From Patescibacteria group bacterium (GTDB taxonomy: Bacteria > Patescibacteriota > Minisyncoccia > Phycocordibacterales > UBA12079), in NCBI GenBank assembly GCA_034661035.1, contig JAYEKM010000008.1:11677-75676 (forward strand): a stretch of 64,000 bases of DNA, in the 5' to 3' direction. The notes beneath the pieces are model-generated. The model worked only from the letters and a program-made list of their open reading frames with translations. It was not told the origin of the DNA and did not search any database. Each line of letters begins with the position of its first letter. Positions within the stretch are counted from its first letter, which is position 1. Shown piece by piece: positions 6,181 through 33,495 of this stretch. A program made the translations under genes and the position numbers.

Positions 6181-6321
<141 letters not shown>

Positions 6322-7824: not shown

Positions 7825-8235
7825 ATGAAAATATTTATAATTTCTAGCAAGAATTTTTACGAAAAAATTCCTGAAATAAAAGAACAGTTGGAAAAAAATG
7901 GAAATATTATTTCTTTACCTAATTGTTTTGATGCCCCTGAAACTGAAGCCAAATATAGGGATTTAGGAAAAAAAGAACACTCTAAGTGGAAATCTGAGAT
8001 GATTTGTCATAGTGTAGATGTAATCAAGGATAATAATGCCGTCTTAGTCTTAAATTTAGAAAAAAATGGTATTAAAAATTACATCGGAGGAGCTACATTT
8101 CTCGAAATGTATGATGCTTTCCGCCTTGGTAAAAAAATATTTCTATATAATCCTGTCCCCGAAGGGATGCTATATGATGAGATAATTGGTTTTAATCCAA
8201 TTGTTATAAACCAAGATTTAAATTTAATTAAATGA
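7825..8235 (+). CDS. hypothetical protein (possibly nucleoside 2-deoxyribosyltransferase-like Rossmann fold)
   Basis: 136 aa; stop overlaps the tsaD start by 4 nt; the fold guess is weak. Confidence 0.4.
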   Translation: MKIFIISSKNFYEKIPEIKEQLEKNGNIISLPNCFDAPETEAKYRDLGKKEHSKWKSEMICHSVDVIKDNNAVLVLNLEKNGIKNYIGGATFLEMYDAFRLGKKIFLYNPVPEGMLYDEIIGFNPIVINQDLNLIK

Positions 8236-9476
8236 AAATATTATCAATAGAAACTAGTTGTGACGAAACTGCTATCAGTATTTTAGAAGCTGAGGGTTCT
8301 TTCGGAGACAAAAACAACCCGCCCAAATTTAAGATTTTAGCTGATAATTTAATCTCTCAAATTGATATTCACAAAGAATACGGGGGTGTCTTCCCTGCTC
8401 TTGCAAAAAGAGAACATTCCAAAAATCTTATCCCCCTCTTAGCCAAATCACTGGAAGAAGCCTCTCTGGCTGTTCCAACTAATAATTCATTTGATAAAGG
8501 ACCAATCAAAAAAATTCTAGAAAGAGAACCCGAGCTAACTAAGTTATTTTTAGAATATATTCCAACCATTAAAATTCCTGAAATAGATGCTATCGCTGTT
8601 ACCCAAGGACCAGGACTTGAACCTGCTCTATGGGTTGGAATTAATTTTGCCAAAGCCCTATCTTTAGTTTGGAATAAACCACTTATTCCAGTTAATCATA
8701 TGGAAGGGCACCTCGTCGCTTCGCTCCTCAAGTCAAAAGTCAAAAGTCAAAAGTCAAAAGTAATTAAATTTCCTGCCATTGGACTACTAATATCTGGCGG
8801 GCATACAGAACTTATATTAATAAAAAAATGGGGTCAATATGAAAAAATTGGTCAAACCTTGGACGATGCGGTAGGTGAAGCTTTTGATAAAGTAGCTAGA
8901 ATGATGGATCTGCCCTACCCTGGCGGACCAGAAATTTCTAAACTAGCTCAAACAAATAGAAACTACACTTCCGGAGGTCCGACCTCCGGAAGTGTAGAGA
9001 TTGGACCTCCACAGGTTAAATTACCAAGGCCTATGTTAAACACCAATGATTTCAATTTTTCATTTTCTGGTTTGAAAACAGCCGTCTTATATCTAATCAA
9101 AAATCTAAAAAAAGAAAACAGTTGGGAAGAATTACCGATCGAAGTCAAACAAAAAATTGCACTTGAATTTGAAGACGCTGTGATTGAAATTTTGCTTAAA
9201 AAAACCAGGACTGCGATTGAAAAATATAATGCTAAAACATTAATCTTAGGAGGTGGTGTTGTTGCTAACTCTCAAATCCGCCAAACCTTCCAATCACTTG
9301 GAGGTCCAACCTCCAAGTTAGAAGTTTCGATGCCAGAAATAGAATTTTCAACCGATAATGCTGTGATGATTGGCATTGCTGGTTATTTTAGATATCTTCA
9401 GCAAAAAGAAAAAGGTCAGTTGCAAACTGCAACCGACCTTCTTGAACTCCCAGCTGATGGAAATTTAGAGTTCTAG
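8232..9476 (+). CDS. tsaD: tRNA N6-adenosine threonylcarbamoyltransferase TsaD (Kae1/YgjD)
   Basis: N-terminal SIETSCDETAISIL and metal-binding H..H region; carries unusual in-frame repeat insertions. Confidence 0.9.
   Translation: MKILSIETSCDETAISILEAEGSFGDKNNPPKFKILADNLISQIDIHKEYGGVFPALAKREHSKNLIPLLAKSLEEASLAVPTNNSFDKGPIKKILEREPELTKLFLEYIPTIKIPEIDAIAVTQGPGLEPALWVGINFAKALSLVWNKPLIPVNHMEGHLVASLLKSKVKSQKSKVIKFPAIGLLISGGHTELILIKKWGQYEKIGQTLDDAVGEAFDKVARMMDLPYPGGPEISKLAQTNRNYTSGGPTSGSVEIGPPQVKLPRPMLNTNDFNFSFSGLKTAVLYLIKNLKKENSWEELPIEVKQKIALEFEDAVIEILLKKTRTAIEKYNAKTLILGGGVVANSQIRQTFQSLGGPTSKLEVSMPEIEFSTDNAVMIGIAGYFRYLQQKEKGQLQTATDLLELPADGNLEF
8730..8762 (+). repeat. heptanucleotide tandem repeat (AAGTCAA)x4.7 inside tsaD
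   Basis: aagtcaa aagtcaa aagtcaa aagtcaa aagta encodes KSKVKSQKSKV. Confidence 0.9.
8963..8997. repeat. 35-bp perfect GC-rich palindrome inside the tsaD coding sequence
   Basis: CTACACTTCCGGAGGTC-C-GACCTCCGGAAGTGTAG encodes ..TSGGPTSGSV.. Confidence 0.9.
9297..9317. repeat. 21-bp perfect palindrome inside tsaD, same core as 8963
   Basis: CTTGGAGGTCCAACCTCCAAG encodes LGGPTSK; core GGAGGTCCRACCTCC. Confidence 0.9.
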
Positions 9477-9698
9477 ACCTTCCTCACAAATTTCAGTATA
9501 CCGCCGAAACATCGTTTCTGTCTCCTCATCTAACTTTATAAAGCCTTGACCAAACGGATGAAAACCAACCCCTTGCATCTTTTCTTTAATTTCTTCCTTT
9601 AATTTTAACAGCTCACCATTGTTTACCTCAAACCTGTCGAAATCAGGGTGTTTAAGATATGGCGAAATCAGATTACTGGCATCTTTTAAAAATAACAT
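9465..9698 (-). CDS. hypothetical small protein (77 aa)
   Basis: Strong SD on the minus strand (TAAGGAGGTAGAAAC-ATG); lies between tsaD and valS; no recognised family. Confidence 0.4.
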   Translation of the reverse strand: MLFLKDASNLISPYLKHPDFDRFEVNNGELLKLKEEIKEKMQGVGFHPFGQGFIKLDEETETMFRRYTEICEEGLEL

Positions 9699-16779: not shown

Positions 16780-19161
16780 TCAAATAACTATATTAAAAAT
16801 CTTGTTTTTTATATAAATACTCTTTTTAACCTCTTGACCGTCCAACCACTTTTGAACCCGTAAATCTGAGAGGACTTTGTCTTTTACCTCCTTCTCGGAA
16901 TCCTCGTCCCTAACCTCAATTTCAGCCCTTACTTTACCGTTTATTTGAACAGCTACTGTGTAAAGATCATCCTTAGCTAGCTTCTCGTCATAGGCTGGCC
17001 ACTTTTCCAGATGGATAGAAGAATCATGACCTAGGCTATTCCAAATCTCTTCTGTTATGTGAGGTGTAAATGGTGATAATATCCTCAAAAACTTTTCAAA
17101 ATCTTTTTGAGAGATCTGAGAAGTTTTTACCACCTTCATGAATTTCATCATTTCAGAAACAGCCGTATTATATTTCAATCCATTGATATCATTTCCAACT
17201 TTTCTGATAGTCTTATGTAAAACGTTCTGAACTTCTTGAGAAGTCGTTTCTTCTAATTTTTCTCTTTGATAAAAAACTTTTTCCAAAAACCGATAGACTC
17301 CAACAATATTATCTTCATTCCACATTACTTCATCCTCCAAAGGTGTTGCAAAAAGTATGTAAGTTCTAACCGAGTCTGCACCAAATCTTTCTACCATCTC
17401 ATTAGGATTCACTACATTCCCTTTTGACTTAGACATTTTCTTCCCTTCTCCATCTAGAATCATCCCTTGATGTCTTAATTTCAAAAAAGGTTCATTGAAA
17501 TCTAACAATCCAATTTTGTTCATCGCTTTAACAAAAAATCGTGAAAATAAAAGATGCATATAAGTATGTTCTGCTCCACCAATATACAAATCAACCGGCA
17601 ACCATTTTTTACGATCTTCCGAACAAAATTCTCTTTCATTATGAACATCAGGATATCTCAAAAAATACCATGACGAATCTACAAAAGTATCCATCGTATC
17701 AAACTCTGGTGTCCAACCTTTCCCAAAAATTTTTTCTGTCCTCTCTCTCAATTCTTTTGATTTTTCTAGAGGTGATTTTCCTGATGGAATAAAGTCAACG
17801 TCGGTTGGCAATAACCAAGGTAAGTGTTCTTCTGGAATTAATTTAGCTTCTCCTTCTGGTGAATAAACAATTGGAATTGGGCAACCCCAATACCTTTGAC
17901 GAGACATAGACCAATCCCTAAGGCGATAATTAGAAGTCGATTCTCCTTCTACAAATTCTGTAATTTTTTGTTTAGCTTCTTCAGAAGTCATTCCATCAAA
18001 TTGAGTAGAGTTTACCAAAACTCCATCACCAGAATAAGATTCTTCTTTTATATCTCCACCAGAGATAACTTCTCTTATATCCAAACCAAATTTGGTAGCA
18101 AATTCAAAATCTCTTTCATCATGAGCGGGGACAGCCATGATTGCCCCAGTTCCATAACCACTTAAAACATAATCAGCAATAAAAATAGGGATTTCTTCTT
18201 TATTAGCTGGATTAGTAGCAAAAATTCCCTCTAACTTTACTCCTGTTTTATCTTTAGCTTCAATTCTATCCATTTCAGTCTTACTCTGAGCTTCTTTGAT
18301 GTATTTTTCTACTTCTTCCCAATTCTCAACTTTTTCTTTTAAATCTTGAACTAATTGGTGCTCAGGAGCCAATACCATATAAGTCGCTCCGAATAATGTA
18401 TCTGGGCGAGTAGTAAATACCTCTATTTCTTTTTCAACTTTAGACTTTGGACTTTGGACTTTAAAGACTATTTTTGCCCCTTCTGACTTTCCAATCCAAT
18501 TTTTTTGATTTTTTTTCGTATGTTCTGGCCAATCAACAATATCTAAATCATTAATCAGGTCGTCAGCAAATTCTGTAATCTTAAAAAACCAACTTGGAAT
18601 TTCTTTTTGAACAATTTGAGTTCCGCAACGCTCACATTCCCCACCTACTACTTGTTCATTAGCAATACCAGTCTGGCAAGATTCACACCAATTAATTTTA
18701 GAAGTTTTTTTATAAACTAAATCATTTTCAAAAAATTTAATAAACAACCATTGTGTCCACTTATAATATTCTGGTTCATAAGTAACTACTTTTTCATCAA
18801 AATCATATCGTAAACCTAAAAGCTTCATTTGCTTTATATAATTATCAATATTTTTAGCTGTGCTGATCTCAGGGGCAATCCCTGTTTTAATTGCATAGTT
18901 TTCAGCCGGCAAACCAAAAGCATCAAAGCCTTGTGGATGCAAAACATTAAAACCTTGCATGGTCTTAAAACGGGTAAACACGTCACTGGCTGTATAAGAT
19001 TCAGTATGCCCCATATGAAGACCATCTCCTGATGGATAAGGAAACATATCCAACATATAAAATTTTTTCTTAGTATTGTCCTTATCTATATTAACAACTT
19101 GGTTGTCTTCCCAAATCTTTTGCCATTTTTTCTCTATTTTTTTATGGTTATACTTTTCCAT
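16780..19161 (-). CDS. leuS: leucyl-tRNA synthetase
   Basis: MFPYPSGDGLHMGH (HIGH), KMSKSKGNV and the LeuRS-specific GFDAFGLPAE. Confidence 0.95.
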   Translation of the reverse strand: MEKYNHKKIEKKWQKIWEDNQVVNIDKDNTKKKFYMLDMFPYPSGDGLHMGHTESYTASDVFTRFKTMQGFNVLHPQGFDAFGLPAENYAIKTGIAPEISTAKNIDNYIKQMKLLGLRYDFDEKVVTYEPEYYKWTQWLFIKFFENDLVYKKTSKINWCESCQTGIANEQVVGGECERCGTQIVQKEIPSWFFKITEFADDLINDLDIVDWPEHTKKNQKNWIGKSEGAKIVFKVQSPKSKVEKEIEVFTTRPDTLFGATYMVLAPEHQLVQDLKEKVENWEEVEKYIKEAQSKTEMDRIEAKDKTGVKLEGIFATNPANKEEIPIFIADYVLSGYGTGAIMAVPAHDERDFEFATKFGLDIREVISGGDIKEESYSGDGVLVNSTQFDGMTSEEAKQKITEFVEGESTSNYRLRDWSMSRQRYWGCPIPIVYSPEGEAKLIPEEHLPWLLPTDVDFIPSGKSPLEKSKELRERTEKIFGKGWTPEFDTMDTFVDSSWYFLRYPDVHNEREFCSEDRKKWLPVDLYIGGAEHTYMHLLFSRFFVKAMNKIGLLDFNEPFLKLRHQGMILDGEGKKMSKSKGNVVNPNEMVERFGADSVRTYILFATPLEDEVMWNEDNIVGVYRFLEKVFYQREKLEETTSQEVQNVLHKTIRKVGNDINGLKYNTAVSEMMKFMKVVKTSQISQKDFEKFLRILSPFTPHITEEIWNSLGHDSSIHLEKWPAYDEKLAKDDLYTVAVQINGKVRAEIEVRDEDSEKEVKDKVLSDLRVQKWLDGQEVKKSIYIKNKIFNIVI
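18438..18465 (-). repeat. heptanucleotide tandem repeat (AAAGTCC/AAAGTCT) inside leuS
   Basis: + strand ctttaga ctttgga ctttgga ctttaaa; on the coding strand it encodes FKVQSPKSKVE. Same unit family as the tsaD repeat. Confidence 0.85.
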
Positions 19162-20834: not shown

Positions 20835-20868
20835 AAAAAACGGAGAGGTTTAACCTCTCCGTTTTTTA
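20835..20868. terminator. bidirectional terminator
   Basis: AAAAAACGGAGAGGTT-TAACCTCTCCGTTTTTT. Confidence 0.7.
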
Positions 20869-26388: not shown

Positions 26389-26431
26389 AAAAGTCTATAA
26401 AGGCCAACGTCTATAAAGTCTTTATAAAACC
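26389..26431. repeat. IVS-like repeat arm (left), overlaps the 3' end of the four-helix-bundle gene
   Basis: aaaaGTCTATAAAGgccaacGTCTATAAAGTCtttataaaacc; supplies codons IKTL and the TAG stop. Confidence 0.6.
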
Positions 26432-26755
26432 TGATAATAATTTCGATATTTCAATCGATAAACTAAAACATTTTTCAAACTGTTCTTTAGATAAATACTT
26501 TAGCTCTAAAGCTAAATAAAGCATCGATCTTACCTCTCCACAGGAACCTTTTGCTATAAATAAAAAATGCTTAAACTCTCTATCCCCCTTCCTCTCAAAT
26601 CCTTCTGCAATATTGTTCATTACTGAAACAGAAGCTCTCTGAATCTGGTCTCTAAAGCTATAGTCCTTAGAATCTGAAAAACTTTTGTAGATACTGATCG
26701 TTAGGGTTCTTGCTTTCTGCCATGATATCATATCTTCAAATTTTTCAATTTTCAT
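26411..26755 (-). CDS. four-helix-bundle protein (23S rRNA intervening-sequence protein family)
   Basis: MKIEKFEDMISWQKARTL..NNIAEGFERKGDREFKHFLFIAKGSCGEVRSMLYLALEL pattern; start trimmed to Met26 of the track ORF. Confidence 0.75.
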   Translation of the reverse strand: MKIEKFEDMISWQKARTLTISIYKSFSDSKDYSFRDQIQRASVSVMNNIAEGFERKGDREFKHFLFIAKGSCGEVRSMLYLALELKYLSKEQFEKCFSLSIEISKLLSGFIKTL

Positions 26756-26800
26756 ACTTTTTACTTTATAGACTTTATGAACTTTCGACTGTAACATCCA
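26756..26800. repeat. IVS-like repeat arm (right), inverted relative to 26389
   Basis: tactttttACTTTATAGACTTTATGAACTTTCGACtgtaac. Confidence 0.6.
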
Positions 26801-27227
26801 TTTTATCAAGTTTACCTTTTTCTGCAACAAAAGACTTATCCTTCCTCAATTTTAAAAGAATGAAATAAGCCAGCAACCAACCCAACATATCCATTAAAAT
26901 ATCCAGACTAGTGTCTAAGTTAAAGTTAGATTGATAAATTGAAGCCTTTGCTAAATATTCAAAAATTTCCCACAAAATACCTACTGTTATTACAAAAAAT
27001 AAGGATGTATAGAATATAGAAAGTTTTTCTTTAATTCTTCTAAAATATTTCGATAGAAAAAAAATATAATAAGAAAGCAAAGCCACCCAAAAACCACCAA
27101 GAAAGTGCATAATTATGTCAAACCACCAAAATTTCCAATATAGGAAAAAGTGGCTAGCAAGAATATTTAAAATAAAGATTATATAAATAAAAACAACCAG
27201 AAAAATTGAAAAAGTTTTTTTGCTCAT
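26775..27227 (-). CDS. hypothetical small membrane protein (about 150 aa, 4 TM)
   Basis: Start trimmed to MSKKTFSIFLVV; the conserved 5' module sits directly upstream. Confidence 0.5.
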   Translation of the reverse strand: MSKKTFSIFLVVFIYIIFILNILASHFFLYWKFWWFDIIMHFLGGFWVALLSYYIFFLSKYFRRIKEKLSIFYTSLFFVITVGILWEIFEYLAKASIYQSNFNLDTSLDILMDMLGWLLAYFILLKLRKDKSFVAEKGKLDKMDVTVESS

Positions 27228-33475: not shown

Positions 33476-33495
33476 CCTGCCTGCCGGCAGGCAGG
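33476..33495. promoter_or_regulatory. 20-bp perfect GC-rich palindrome 16 nt upstream of the MFP start (candidate operator or 5' hairpin)
   Basis: CCTGCCTGCCGGCAGGCAGG with outer TTCGCCC/GGGCGAA; about 80% GC in a roughly 30% GC genome. Confidence 0.45.

Follow-up and report, generated by a model that had tools for sequence, protein, structure and literature searches.

A family of short DNA hairpins translated in frame within the tsaD gene of Patescibacteria

How a gene for tRNA modification can carry perfect palindromes within its reading frame is the question raised by tsaD in the window analysed here, i.e., a 64,000-nucleotide stretch (G+C content 31%) of a Patescibacteria group bacterium assembly (GCA_034661035.1, contig JAYEKM010000008.1). 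The tsaD coding sequence (8232..9476, plus strand; 414 aa; TIGR03723, E = 1.2e-104) is the host of the hairpins designated A and B below. On balance, we regard these palindromes as probable translated, in-frame copies of a lineage-wide family of short DNA hairpins resembling repetitive extragenic palindromic (REP) sequences, an opinion held with restrained confidence.

Hairpins within the reading frame of tsaD

Hairpin A (8963..8997, plus strand) is a perfect 35-nt palindrome, in which two complementary 17-nt arms surround a central C (CTACACTTCCGGAGGTC-C-GACCTCCGGAAGTGTAG), exactly as described in the initial annotation of this locus. Its inner core, GGAGGTCCGACCTCC, occupies 8973-8987 within an ACTT...AAGT frame at 8967-8993; the element is translated in frame as NYTSGGPTSGSVE (residues 244-256), and the calculated energy of its RNA fold is -31 kcal/mol (z = -5.0). 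It is followed by a remnant (8996..9017, plus strand; GAGATTGGACCTCCACAGGTT, translated as EIGPPQV) of the decayed second unit of an inverted doublet, which lines up codon by codon with the intact second unit of the doublet in the relative L162 (GGAGGTTGAACCTCCCCAGATT) and with L082; hairpin A and the remnant together are homologous to the L162 doublet. A covariance model of the 23-nt units trained on tsaD sequences (R1) gives a weak match at this place (8992-9014). The remnant holds the third, partial core noted initially (GGACCTCC, 9003-9010), which indeed exists, but encodes IGPP rather than the GGPTS peptide ascribed to it. Compared with the L162 doublet, the arms of hairpin A look extended or homogenised, so part of its perfection is probably secondary.

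Hairpin B (9296..9318, plus strand) had been taken for a perfect 21-bp palindrome, but is actually a 23-nt hairpin, its 10-bp stem closed by a 3-nt loop (ACTTGGAGGT-CCA-ACCTCCAAGT; fold z = -3.75). Its translation, SLGGPTSKL (residues 355-363), replaces a native LEKETPN-type loop without any change in length, and the loop has the same length in hairpin-free relatives and distant homologues in the protein alignment. A lone unit at site A lengthens the protein by 8 residues and the arrangement present in the window by approximately 11, so the idea of in-frame insertion holds for A and has to be replaced by length-neutral substitution for B. Note that hairpin B is the second-best match of R1 (34.0 bits), having itself been part of the training set.

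In addition to the elements recognized initially, two others were found in this gene. One of them, a hairpin at 9412-9440 (site C), is considered below with the question of function. The other (site 1; 8465..8487, plus strand; TCTGGCTGTTCCAACTAATAATT, translated as SLAVPTNNS) is probably a decayed unit, an assignment made with low confidence: the codons in question hold intact units in L166 (ACTTGGTATTCCGACTACCAAGT), L165, L085 and other relatives, and R1 does not detect the candidate.

The palindromes exceed chance expectation, in agreement with the initial annotation. Copies of the core GGAGGTCCRACCTCC lie at 8973-8987 and 9300-9314, another with two mismatches lies at 8996-9010, and there are none elsewhere in the 64 kb; A and B are alike at 14 of its 15 positions. 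By chance, 0.06 matches to the core would be expected in the window, and at least five matches were obtained in 0 of 100 shuffles. When the codons were resampled synonymously 2000 times according to the codon usage of the window, the best stem at site A had 9 bp versus the 17 observed, and the stem at site B never reached 10 bp. Since none of these resamplings yielded the observed stems, the palindromy belongs to the DNA itself and does not follow from the encoded peptide. The alternative, i.e., that selection for Gly/Ser/Thr/Pro-rich linkers, or mere accident, produced the palindromes incidentally, can appeal to the encoded peptides, which are typical of flexible loops and are located in loop or low-confidence regions. 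However, units of the family are read in different frames in different places, giving peptides as unrelated as LGGSTSK, TWTPGVQV and IWHSECQI, and together with the core expectation and the resampling this effectively refutes a protein-level or chance origin, which we consider extremely improbable.

At the protein level, the effect of the hairpins is a short Gly/Ser/Thr/Pro-rich coil. In the AlphaFold model of TsaD (mean predicted local distance difference test score, pLDDT, 87.4; top Foldseek matches, the E. coli and Salmonella YgjD-YeaZ structures), residues 249-257 at site A are modelled as a coil (pLDDT below 50), and site B comprises the end of the helix 347-357 plus the next loop. The claim that the elements are translated in variable loops was thereby borne out, and the modelled positions of A and B are consistent with a tolerated surface decoration of TsaD. 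No known RNA family was matched in an Rfam search of tsaD.

A repeat family concentrated in tsaD

The closest TsaD proteins (61–82% identity over the full alignment) come from Patescibacteria (Parcubacteria-type) metagenomes and differ in length at a few common places. The DNA of 13 close relatives, with the common gene order tsaD-ValRS-PrsW-HSP20-YceG-DUF8128-sigma70-LeuRS (ValRS and LeuRS, valyl- and leucyl-tRNA synthetases), was used for comparison; a profile search of genome contigs with the TsaD alignment relied on patterns that were too general and provided relatives of at most 52% identity and no close clade. A codon-level alignment placed the hairpins in four recurrent loops (site 1 after LxEA, A, B and C) and occasionally in others, with the open reading frame (ORF) of tsaD intact in 13 of the 13 clade genes. 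At the loops corresponding to those of the window, the orthologues carry different units or none.

At sites 1, A and B, the majority of units measure exactly 23 nt and follow the pattern ACTTRG-N11-CYAAGT, with a centre near TCCGA, TCCAA or TTCAA (TCCRA) and, beside it, two pairs that are variable yet complementary (TA, AG, AC, CG, CA). Twenty-six units from 12 tsaD genes could be aligned without gaps; G6/C18 were invariant, T3/A21 were conserved in at least 90%, and pairs 5, 7, 8 and 9 covaried, a count that is descriptive only because the units had been picked as hairpins. Inverted doublets occur in L086, L163 and L162 and a tandem pair in L081, and the length of the palindrome ranges from 13 to 24 bp per arm across lineages. 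No duplication was seen in the flanks of the units, and no exact match to unit B was found in viral contigs. Approximately half of the surveyed tsaD genes are hairpin-free, and the presence, number and sequence of the hairpins vary among relatives that are 85–91% identical in conserved columns. The units are a DNA-level repeat family that is read through in four or five permissive surface loops of TsaD in many Patescibacteria and that decays in some lineages. No description of these hairpins in Patescibacteria was found in a literature search.

Copies within one genome are more alike than same-site copies in different genomes. Sites A and B of L161 contain identical 23-mers, GTACTCCGACTAC is present at three sites of L163, and ACTTAGCGCT is common to two sites of L086; between genomes, the site-1 unit of L165 equals the site-B unit of L086. 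Outside tsaD, 23-nt units occupy orthologous LeuRS codons in L162 (10592-10614) and L081 (9978-10000), where KEKVENW has been exchanged for VIGLPNK or ALEALNE at constant length. The L162 LeuRS unit, located 9.7 kb away, is nearly identical to one of the tsaD units of this genome. These LeuRS units bear no likeness to the native 15 nt that they replaced and match family members in other genes and genomes; the LeuRS gene of the window (16780-19161, minus strand) retains the native state at the orthologous codons.

The stems are kept perfectly paired through changes in both arms, even at an amino-acid cost: at site B, GGAGGT..ACCTCC in the window and L161 corresponds to GGACGT..ACGTCC in L165, turning Gly into Arg, and an analogous paired change at site C in L164 turns Thr into Ile. 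In a rough neighbour-joining tree based on conserved columns, the window groups with L166, L082 and L083. All three of these partners retain the native LEKE-type loop at site B, which means that unit B was either gained repeatedly at one codon or moved by recombination.

Dispersal of the core beyond this gene, which the initial annotation had envisaged, was not seen; the exact core is absent from the rest of the 64 kb, and it is in tsaD that the units of the family accumulate. Within the close clade, R1 detected approximately 30 units in 17.7 kb of tsaD versus 5 in 204 kb of other DNA, the latter comprising two in LeuRS, one in another ORF, one intergenic and one at an ordinary terminator of the window. 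Since R1 had been trained on tsaD units, the comparison was repeated with a model-free count of perfect stems of at least 8 bp. In this count, tsaD had 1.68 hairpins per kb, the remaining coding DNA 0.066 and intergenic DNA 1.04. The density in tsaD is 25 times that in other coding DNA, and the enrichment lies between 25- and 70-fold across counts. In approximately 80 more distant Patescibacteria loci, tsaD carried about five times as many hairpins as other coding DNA (stems of at least 10 bp), and these fall in the corresponding tsaD loops, as judged by reading of the gene coordinates. The neighbours of hairpin-rich tsaD genes contain 0.053 hairpins per kb compared with 2.3 in tsaD itself; with half of the tsaD genes empty and the neighbours not enriched, the load is specific to certain lineages and to tsaD. 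The same neighbouring-gene density led to rejection of the idea that hairpins had flooded coding DNA in general.

Two other repeats within tsaD may be mentioned here. An AAGTCA hexanucleotide tandem repeat of approximately five copies (window ~8730-8760) is translated as SKVKSQKSKV within a loop whose pLDDT lies below 50, and is also found in L161 and, in an altered form, in L081. A natural coding palindrome with an 8-bp stem (TGGAATAA-ACCAC-TTATTCCA, window 8670-8690) underlies the conserved motif WNKPLIP; this stem has 10 bp in L105 (2010-2030).

Origin and possible role of the hairpins

A potential source of such units was recognized in more distant Patescibacteria. In L108, the gene located directly 3' of tsaD encodes a Y1 (IS200-like) transposase domain (PF01797, E = 1.5e-10) and belongs to a family of approximately 3500 members in the protein collection, which, where named, are Parcubacteria/Patescibacteria transposases, usually with one contig each. 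The only NCBIfam match of the four members analysed was NF047646, the REP-associated tyrosine transposase (RAYT), at 37–44 bits, i.e., below the curated cutoff of 80. The HYH (HUH) motif is invariant in these RAYT-like proteins; a sequence search of the PDB with one of them returned nothing at E ≤ 0.01. In 7 of the 7 loci examined, the single-copy gene is flanked on both sides by hairpins of 21–29 nt that have the architecture of the tsaD units, exemplified by CTTTCGACATCGGATGTCGAAAG (23 nt, L169), ATTTAGGACATCCGATGTCCTAAAT (L108) and CTGGACGTCCGACGTCCAG (L171). Moreover, the RAYT-like gene carries an in-frame copy of its own flanking hairpin in all six loci examined for it (L108:8409-9119, and L167, L168, L169, L170 and L171:10001-~10700), at residues ~60-67. 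This copy is translated as DIGCP, DIASP, DIGCQ, DVGRP or VIARP, following the variant of the respective genome, and in L170 it is a 39-nt perfect palindrome within the ORF. We know of no earlier description of in-frame own-hairpin copies in Patescibacterial RAYT-like genes.

The hairpins that tie tsaD units to RAYT-like flanks do so between genomes. A 25-mer flanking the RAYT-like gene of L126 sits in frame within the tsaD gene of L114; the flanking hairpin of L171 and the site-B unit of L165 tsaD have a common 17-nt core, TGGACGTCCGACGTCCA; and the site-A arms of L162 (ATCTGG/CCAGAT) are those of the upstream hairpin of L171. R1, although built from tsaD units only, matches the L169 flank with 26.3 bits (rough E of 0.005 in 809 kb).

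This architecture, the common cores and the published REP/RAYT model (PMC3116915, PMC5581495) are the grounds on which we infer RAYT-dependent spread. A RAYT-like enzyme encoded elsewhere in the genome would recognise the folded single-stranded hairpin and seed new copies. Template switching during replication would then homogenise and lengthen the arms, giving rise to the 35-nt perfect palindrome A, and could also overwrite a loop at constant length, as at B; the events that kept the frame in tolerant loops would be the survivors. Template switching is known to create and maintain perfect hairpins (PMC8794818). Its participation here is supported by the flanks of the core at site A, which are inverted repeats in the window and direct repeats in L162, as if one flank had been rewritten from the other, and by site B, where the right arm is near the native sequence and the left arm is its reverse complement.

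The same observations would fit an origin of the hairpins in place without any transposase, through template switching at quasi-palindromes, followed by spread by short-patch switching between nearby copies. Under this explanation, the constant length of the replacements at site B, site 1 and LeuRS is expected; the agreement, judged by eye, of site B with the native LEKETPN-type sequence of L082/L083 at 16 of 24 positions, most of them on the right-hand arm, is accounted for, as is the variation of arm length among lineages; and the process is documented for hairpins (PMC8794818) as well as for the alteration of yeast proteins (PMC8604942). At the same time, template switching alone is not sufficient for the LeuRS units, which are unlike the 15 nt replaced and alike the family elsewhere. 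Nor does an origin in place predict near-identical units 0.3 to 9.7 kb apart within one genome, termini and centres conserved across genomes, or the same cores beside RAYT-like genes. As a complete explanation, it appears to us unlikely without being negligible, and it serves better as a second step than as an alternative in its own right.

Several facts weigh against RAYT-dependent spread, too. No Y1 transposase gene was found by tblastn in the 64-kb window or in the close-clade loci, and L126, the one locus containing both genes, has hairpins in tsaD whose sequences are not those of the hairpins beside its RAYT-like gene. Insertion by a transposase does not predict that single units at site B, site 1 and LeuRS are length-neutral. 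Hairpin B lacks the canonical 5' GTAG tag, which hairpin A carries in reverse (CTAC...GTAG). If insertions had fallen throughout the genome with tolerance as the only filter, the neighbours of loaded tsaD genes should also have been enriched, which is not the case, and no dispersed copies exist in the 64 kb, except for a weak match at the ordinary intergenic terminator at 20840-20862.

Selection for nucleic-acid structures with a tsaD-specific function, such as antisense or convergent termination, or mRNA or single-stranded DNA binding sites tuning TsaD expression, should be weighed particularly with regard to site C. This conserved hairpin (9412..9440, minus strand; KGQLQTATDL) has a 12-bp stem with one A.C mismatch, which becomes G.U on the minus strand. 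Its region (9409-9443) lies within the last 70 nt of tsaD and is followed by a T-run on the minus strand, where the fold is stronger than on the plus strand (-27.3 vs -16.1 kcal/mol). When the 13 genes were aligned without selection for pairing, 89% of the cells were paired at site C, and two-sided changes were seen in 9 of the 12 pairs, a value matched by 0 of 500 shuffles. An ORF of 77 aa on the opposite strand (9465..9698, minus strand; 58% identity in L166; no Pfam match) overlaps the stop codon of tsaD; site C lies shortly beyond the end of this convergent ORF and, judging from sequence, may be its terminator.

The same function could be considered for hairpin A, which is followed on the minus strand by TTTCTATTTG and, like site C, was scored as terminator-like on this strand. 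Moreover, a minus-strand T tail accompanies 16 of the 38 clade hairpins compared with a background of 20%; convergent ORFs end within tsaD in the window and in L166; and the 25- to 70-fold enrichment in tsaD, as well as the preservation of pairing despite the amino-acid cost, would be expected from a selected structure. However, hairpin B is not terminator-like, and neither it nor the other site-B units have a T tail; the number of hairpins per tsaD gene does not vary with the presence of a convergent gene downstream (0.74 vs 0.86, p = 0.63); and neither RNA strand shows a preference for wobble pairs (mismatches, 17 G/T vs 26 A/C), so termination fails as a general cause. The variability among 85–91%-identical relatives, the many hairpin-free tsaD genes and the decayed copies, including the remnant after A, are likewise difficult to reconcile with a selected function, and we judge this explanation rather improbable. 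Mimicry of the anticodon arm or T-arm was also considered by eye and rejected: U36-A37 is missing from the loops, and the T-like loop would need two more bases.

A more speculative possibility, to which we likewise assign a low probability, is that the units spread by copy-and-overwrite instead of ordinary insertion, i.e., short-patch conversion at the folded hairpin, able to exchange a loop at constant length, and/or that RAYT-like proteins have been domesticated as hairpin-binding factors in a circuit of tsaD and N6-threonylcarbamoyladenosine (t6A). In such a circuit, the in-frame hairpin of the RAYT-like genes and the tsaD hairpins would link the RAYT-like proteins to t6A synthesis. If true, either route would explain the concentration in tsaD by a factor of 25 to 70, the pairing kept at the expense of amino acids and the fact that lineages which do not cluster with one another repeatedly carry units at identical codons.

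The surroundings of tsaD contain several further elements. Immediately 5' of the gene, the DNA seems to form a variable island: in L163 (1-9999) and L164 (4500-9996), this place is taken by restriction-modification, OLD-nuclease, PemK-toxin and integrase genes, and the window has tRNA genes and a GNAT acetyltransferase gene instead. The 3' part of tRNA-Val (GGTTCAAATCCTGTATCGCC) recurs beside the tRNA gene as a perfect inverted copy of 20 nt (window 6181-6200 vs 6251-6270), which may be the scar of an integrative element. The GC skew in the window tracks gene orientation and gives no usable clue to replication. An ORF at 26414-26830 (minus strand) matches the 23S rRNA intervening-sequence protein family (PF05635, E = 4e-35).

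Hairpins of other types were observed as well. A perfect 20-nt palindrome, CCTGCCTGCCGGCAGGCAGG (window 33476-33495), lies near the 5' end of a minus-strand HlyD-like ORF; the hairpin CCTGCCTG-TCCGG-CAGGCAGG at L021:17553-17573 is related to it, and an LPAGKAG insert in the TsaD proteins P0018, P0022 and P0023 could encode its motif, so this type may represent a second hairpin family. Four distant Patescibacteria loci (L092:17578-17604, L100:15594-15622, L103:14660-14688 and L144:19553-19583) have in common a GC-rich conserved hairpin, GATACGCGGCCTG-NNN-CAGGCCGCGTATC, situated close to the 5' end of a ~550-aa gene.

Comparison with known systems

The initial annotation had compared the palindromes with the Rickettsia palindromic elements (RPEs), which were reportedly described by Ogata and colleagues in 2000 and 2002, with RPE-1 said to be ~100-150 bp long and to add 30–50 residues. 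The likeness holds insofar as palindromic repeats are found in frame in functional genes of a reduced genome, at surface positions of the proteins. However, the units described here measure 23–35 nt, A adding ~11 residues and B none, and have no sequence relation to RPE-1; moreover, RPEs are spread over many genes, whereas the units are concentrated in tsaD. The nearest relatives are RAYT-linked short hairpins of the REP type. RPE-4 and RPE-6, which are short Rickettsia elements, have themselves been classed as REPs by Di Nocera et al. 2013 (PMC3733652).

With the system of REPs, their paired forms (REPINs) and RAYTs (PMC3733652, PMC3116915, PMC5581495), the present hairpins have in common the size of 20–40 nt and GC-rich stems (A, 35 nt; B, 23 nt), the inverted doublets, the genome-specific sequence variants and the hairpin-flanked single-copy Y1 transposase gene (7 Patescibacteria loci). 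Intragenic in-frame REPs, including two in one gene and cases in tRNA synthetase genes, are known as well (PMC3733652). REPs usually form many dispersed, mainly extragenic copies, whereas those described here are nearly all coding and concentrated in tsaD. The GTAG (or CGTC) tag at the 5' foot of REPs is absent or reversed in the window, B being framed as ACTT...AAGT; GTAG is present in relatives, in the L126 flanks and the L114 tsaD copy (ATGTAGGACATCCGATGTCCTACAT). Length-neutral replacements and an in-frame hairpin within the transposase genes are further differences, and the Patescibacterial proteins fall below the NCBIfam cutoff for RAYTs, none having been seen in the window. The hairpins appear to work like a REP and are at most putative members of the REP/RAYT system in this genome.

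Template-switch hairpins (PMC8794818; PMC8604942) and the coding palindromes of Nematomorpha mitochondria (PMC6649704) are likewise perfect inverted repeats in coding sequence, length-neutral, and with arms that change together and so mimic compensatory evolution, as is the case here. Those hairpins derive locally, whereas the units described here constitute a family with conserved ends and centre across genes and genomes; local derivation fits B and the extension of the arms of A, and does not fit the LeuRS units or the likeness between sites.

Small dispersed repeats (SDRs; 21–27 nt) have reportedly been described in Nostoc and other cyanobacteria by Elhai and colleagues in 2008, and we know of no transposase for them. 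SDRs and the GC clusters of yeast mitochondria resemble the present units as very short, apparently mobile hairpins within genes of an AT-rich genome; they differ in lineage and sequence, and SDRs are mostly intergenic. Transposable elements of the miniature inverted-repeat type (70–300 bp, with terminal inverted repeats and target-site duplication) were rejected for comparison: the units are far too short, and their flanks show no duplication.

New with respect to the intragenic REPs already described are the host phylum, the nearly exclusive coding location and the concentration in tsaD, the missing or reversed tag, the length-neutral replacements and the hairpin inside the transposase gene. 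REPs and RAYTs are usually described as extragenic in proteobacterial genomes, and Patescibacteria genomes have almost no intergenic space. The present case reveals a REP/RAYT-related system in Patescibacteria, in which the hairpins lie in coding DNA and are translated, their stems are perfect, and loops are sometimes replaced base for base. Across distant lineages, they accumulate in one essential gene of tRNA modification, tsaD, as in a sink. In practical terms, the hairpins account for part of the variation in the annotated length of TsaD in this phylum and show how protein loops gain new sequence in reduced genomes. To our knowledge, the way in which REPs multiply has not been established, and the units compared here with REPs and template-switch hairpins provide natural material for working out how short hairpins are copied.

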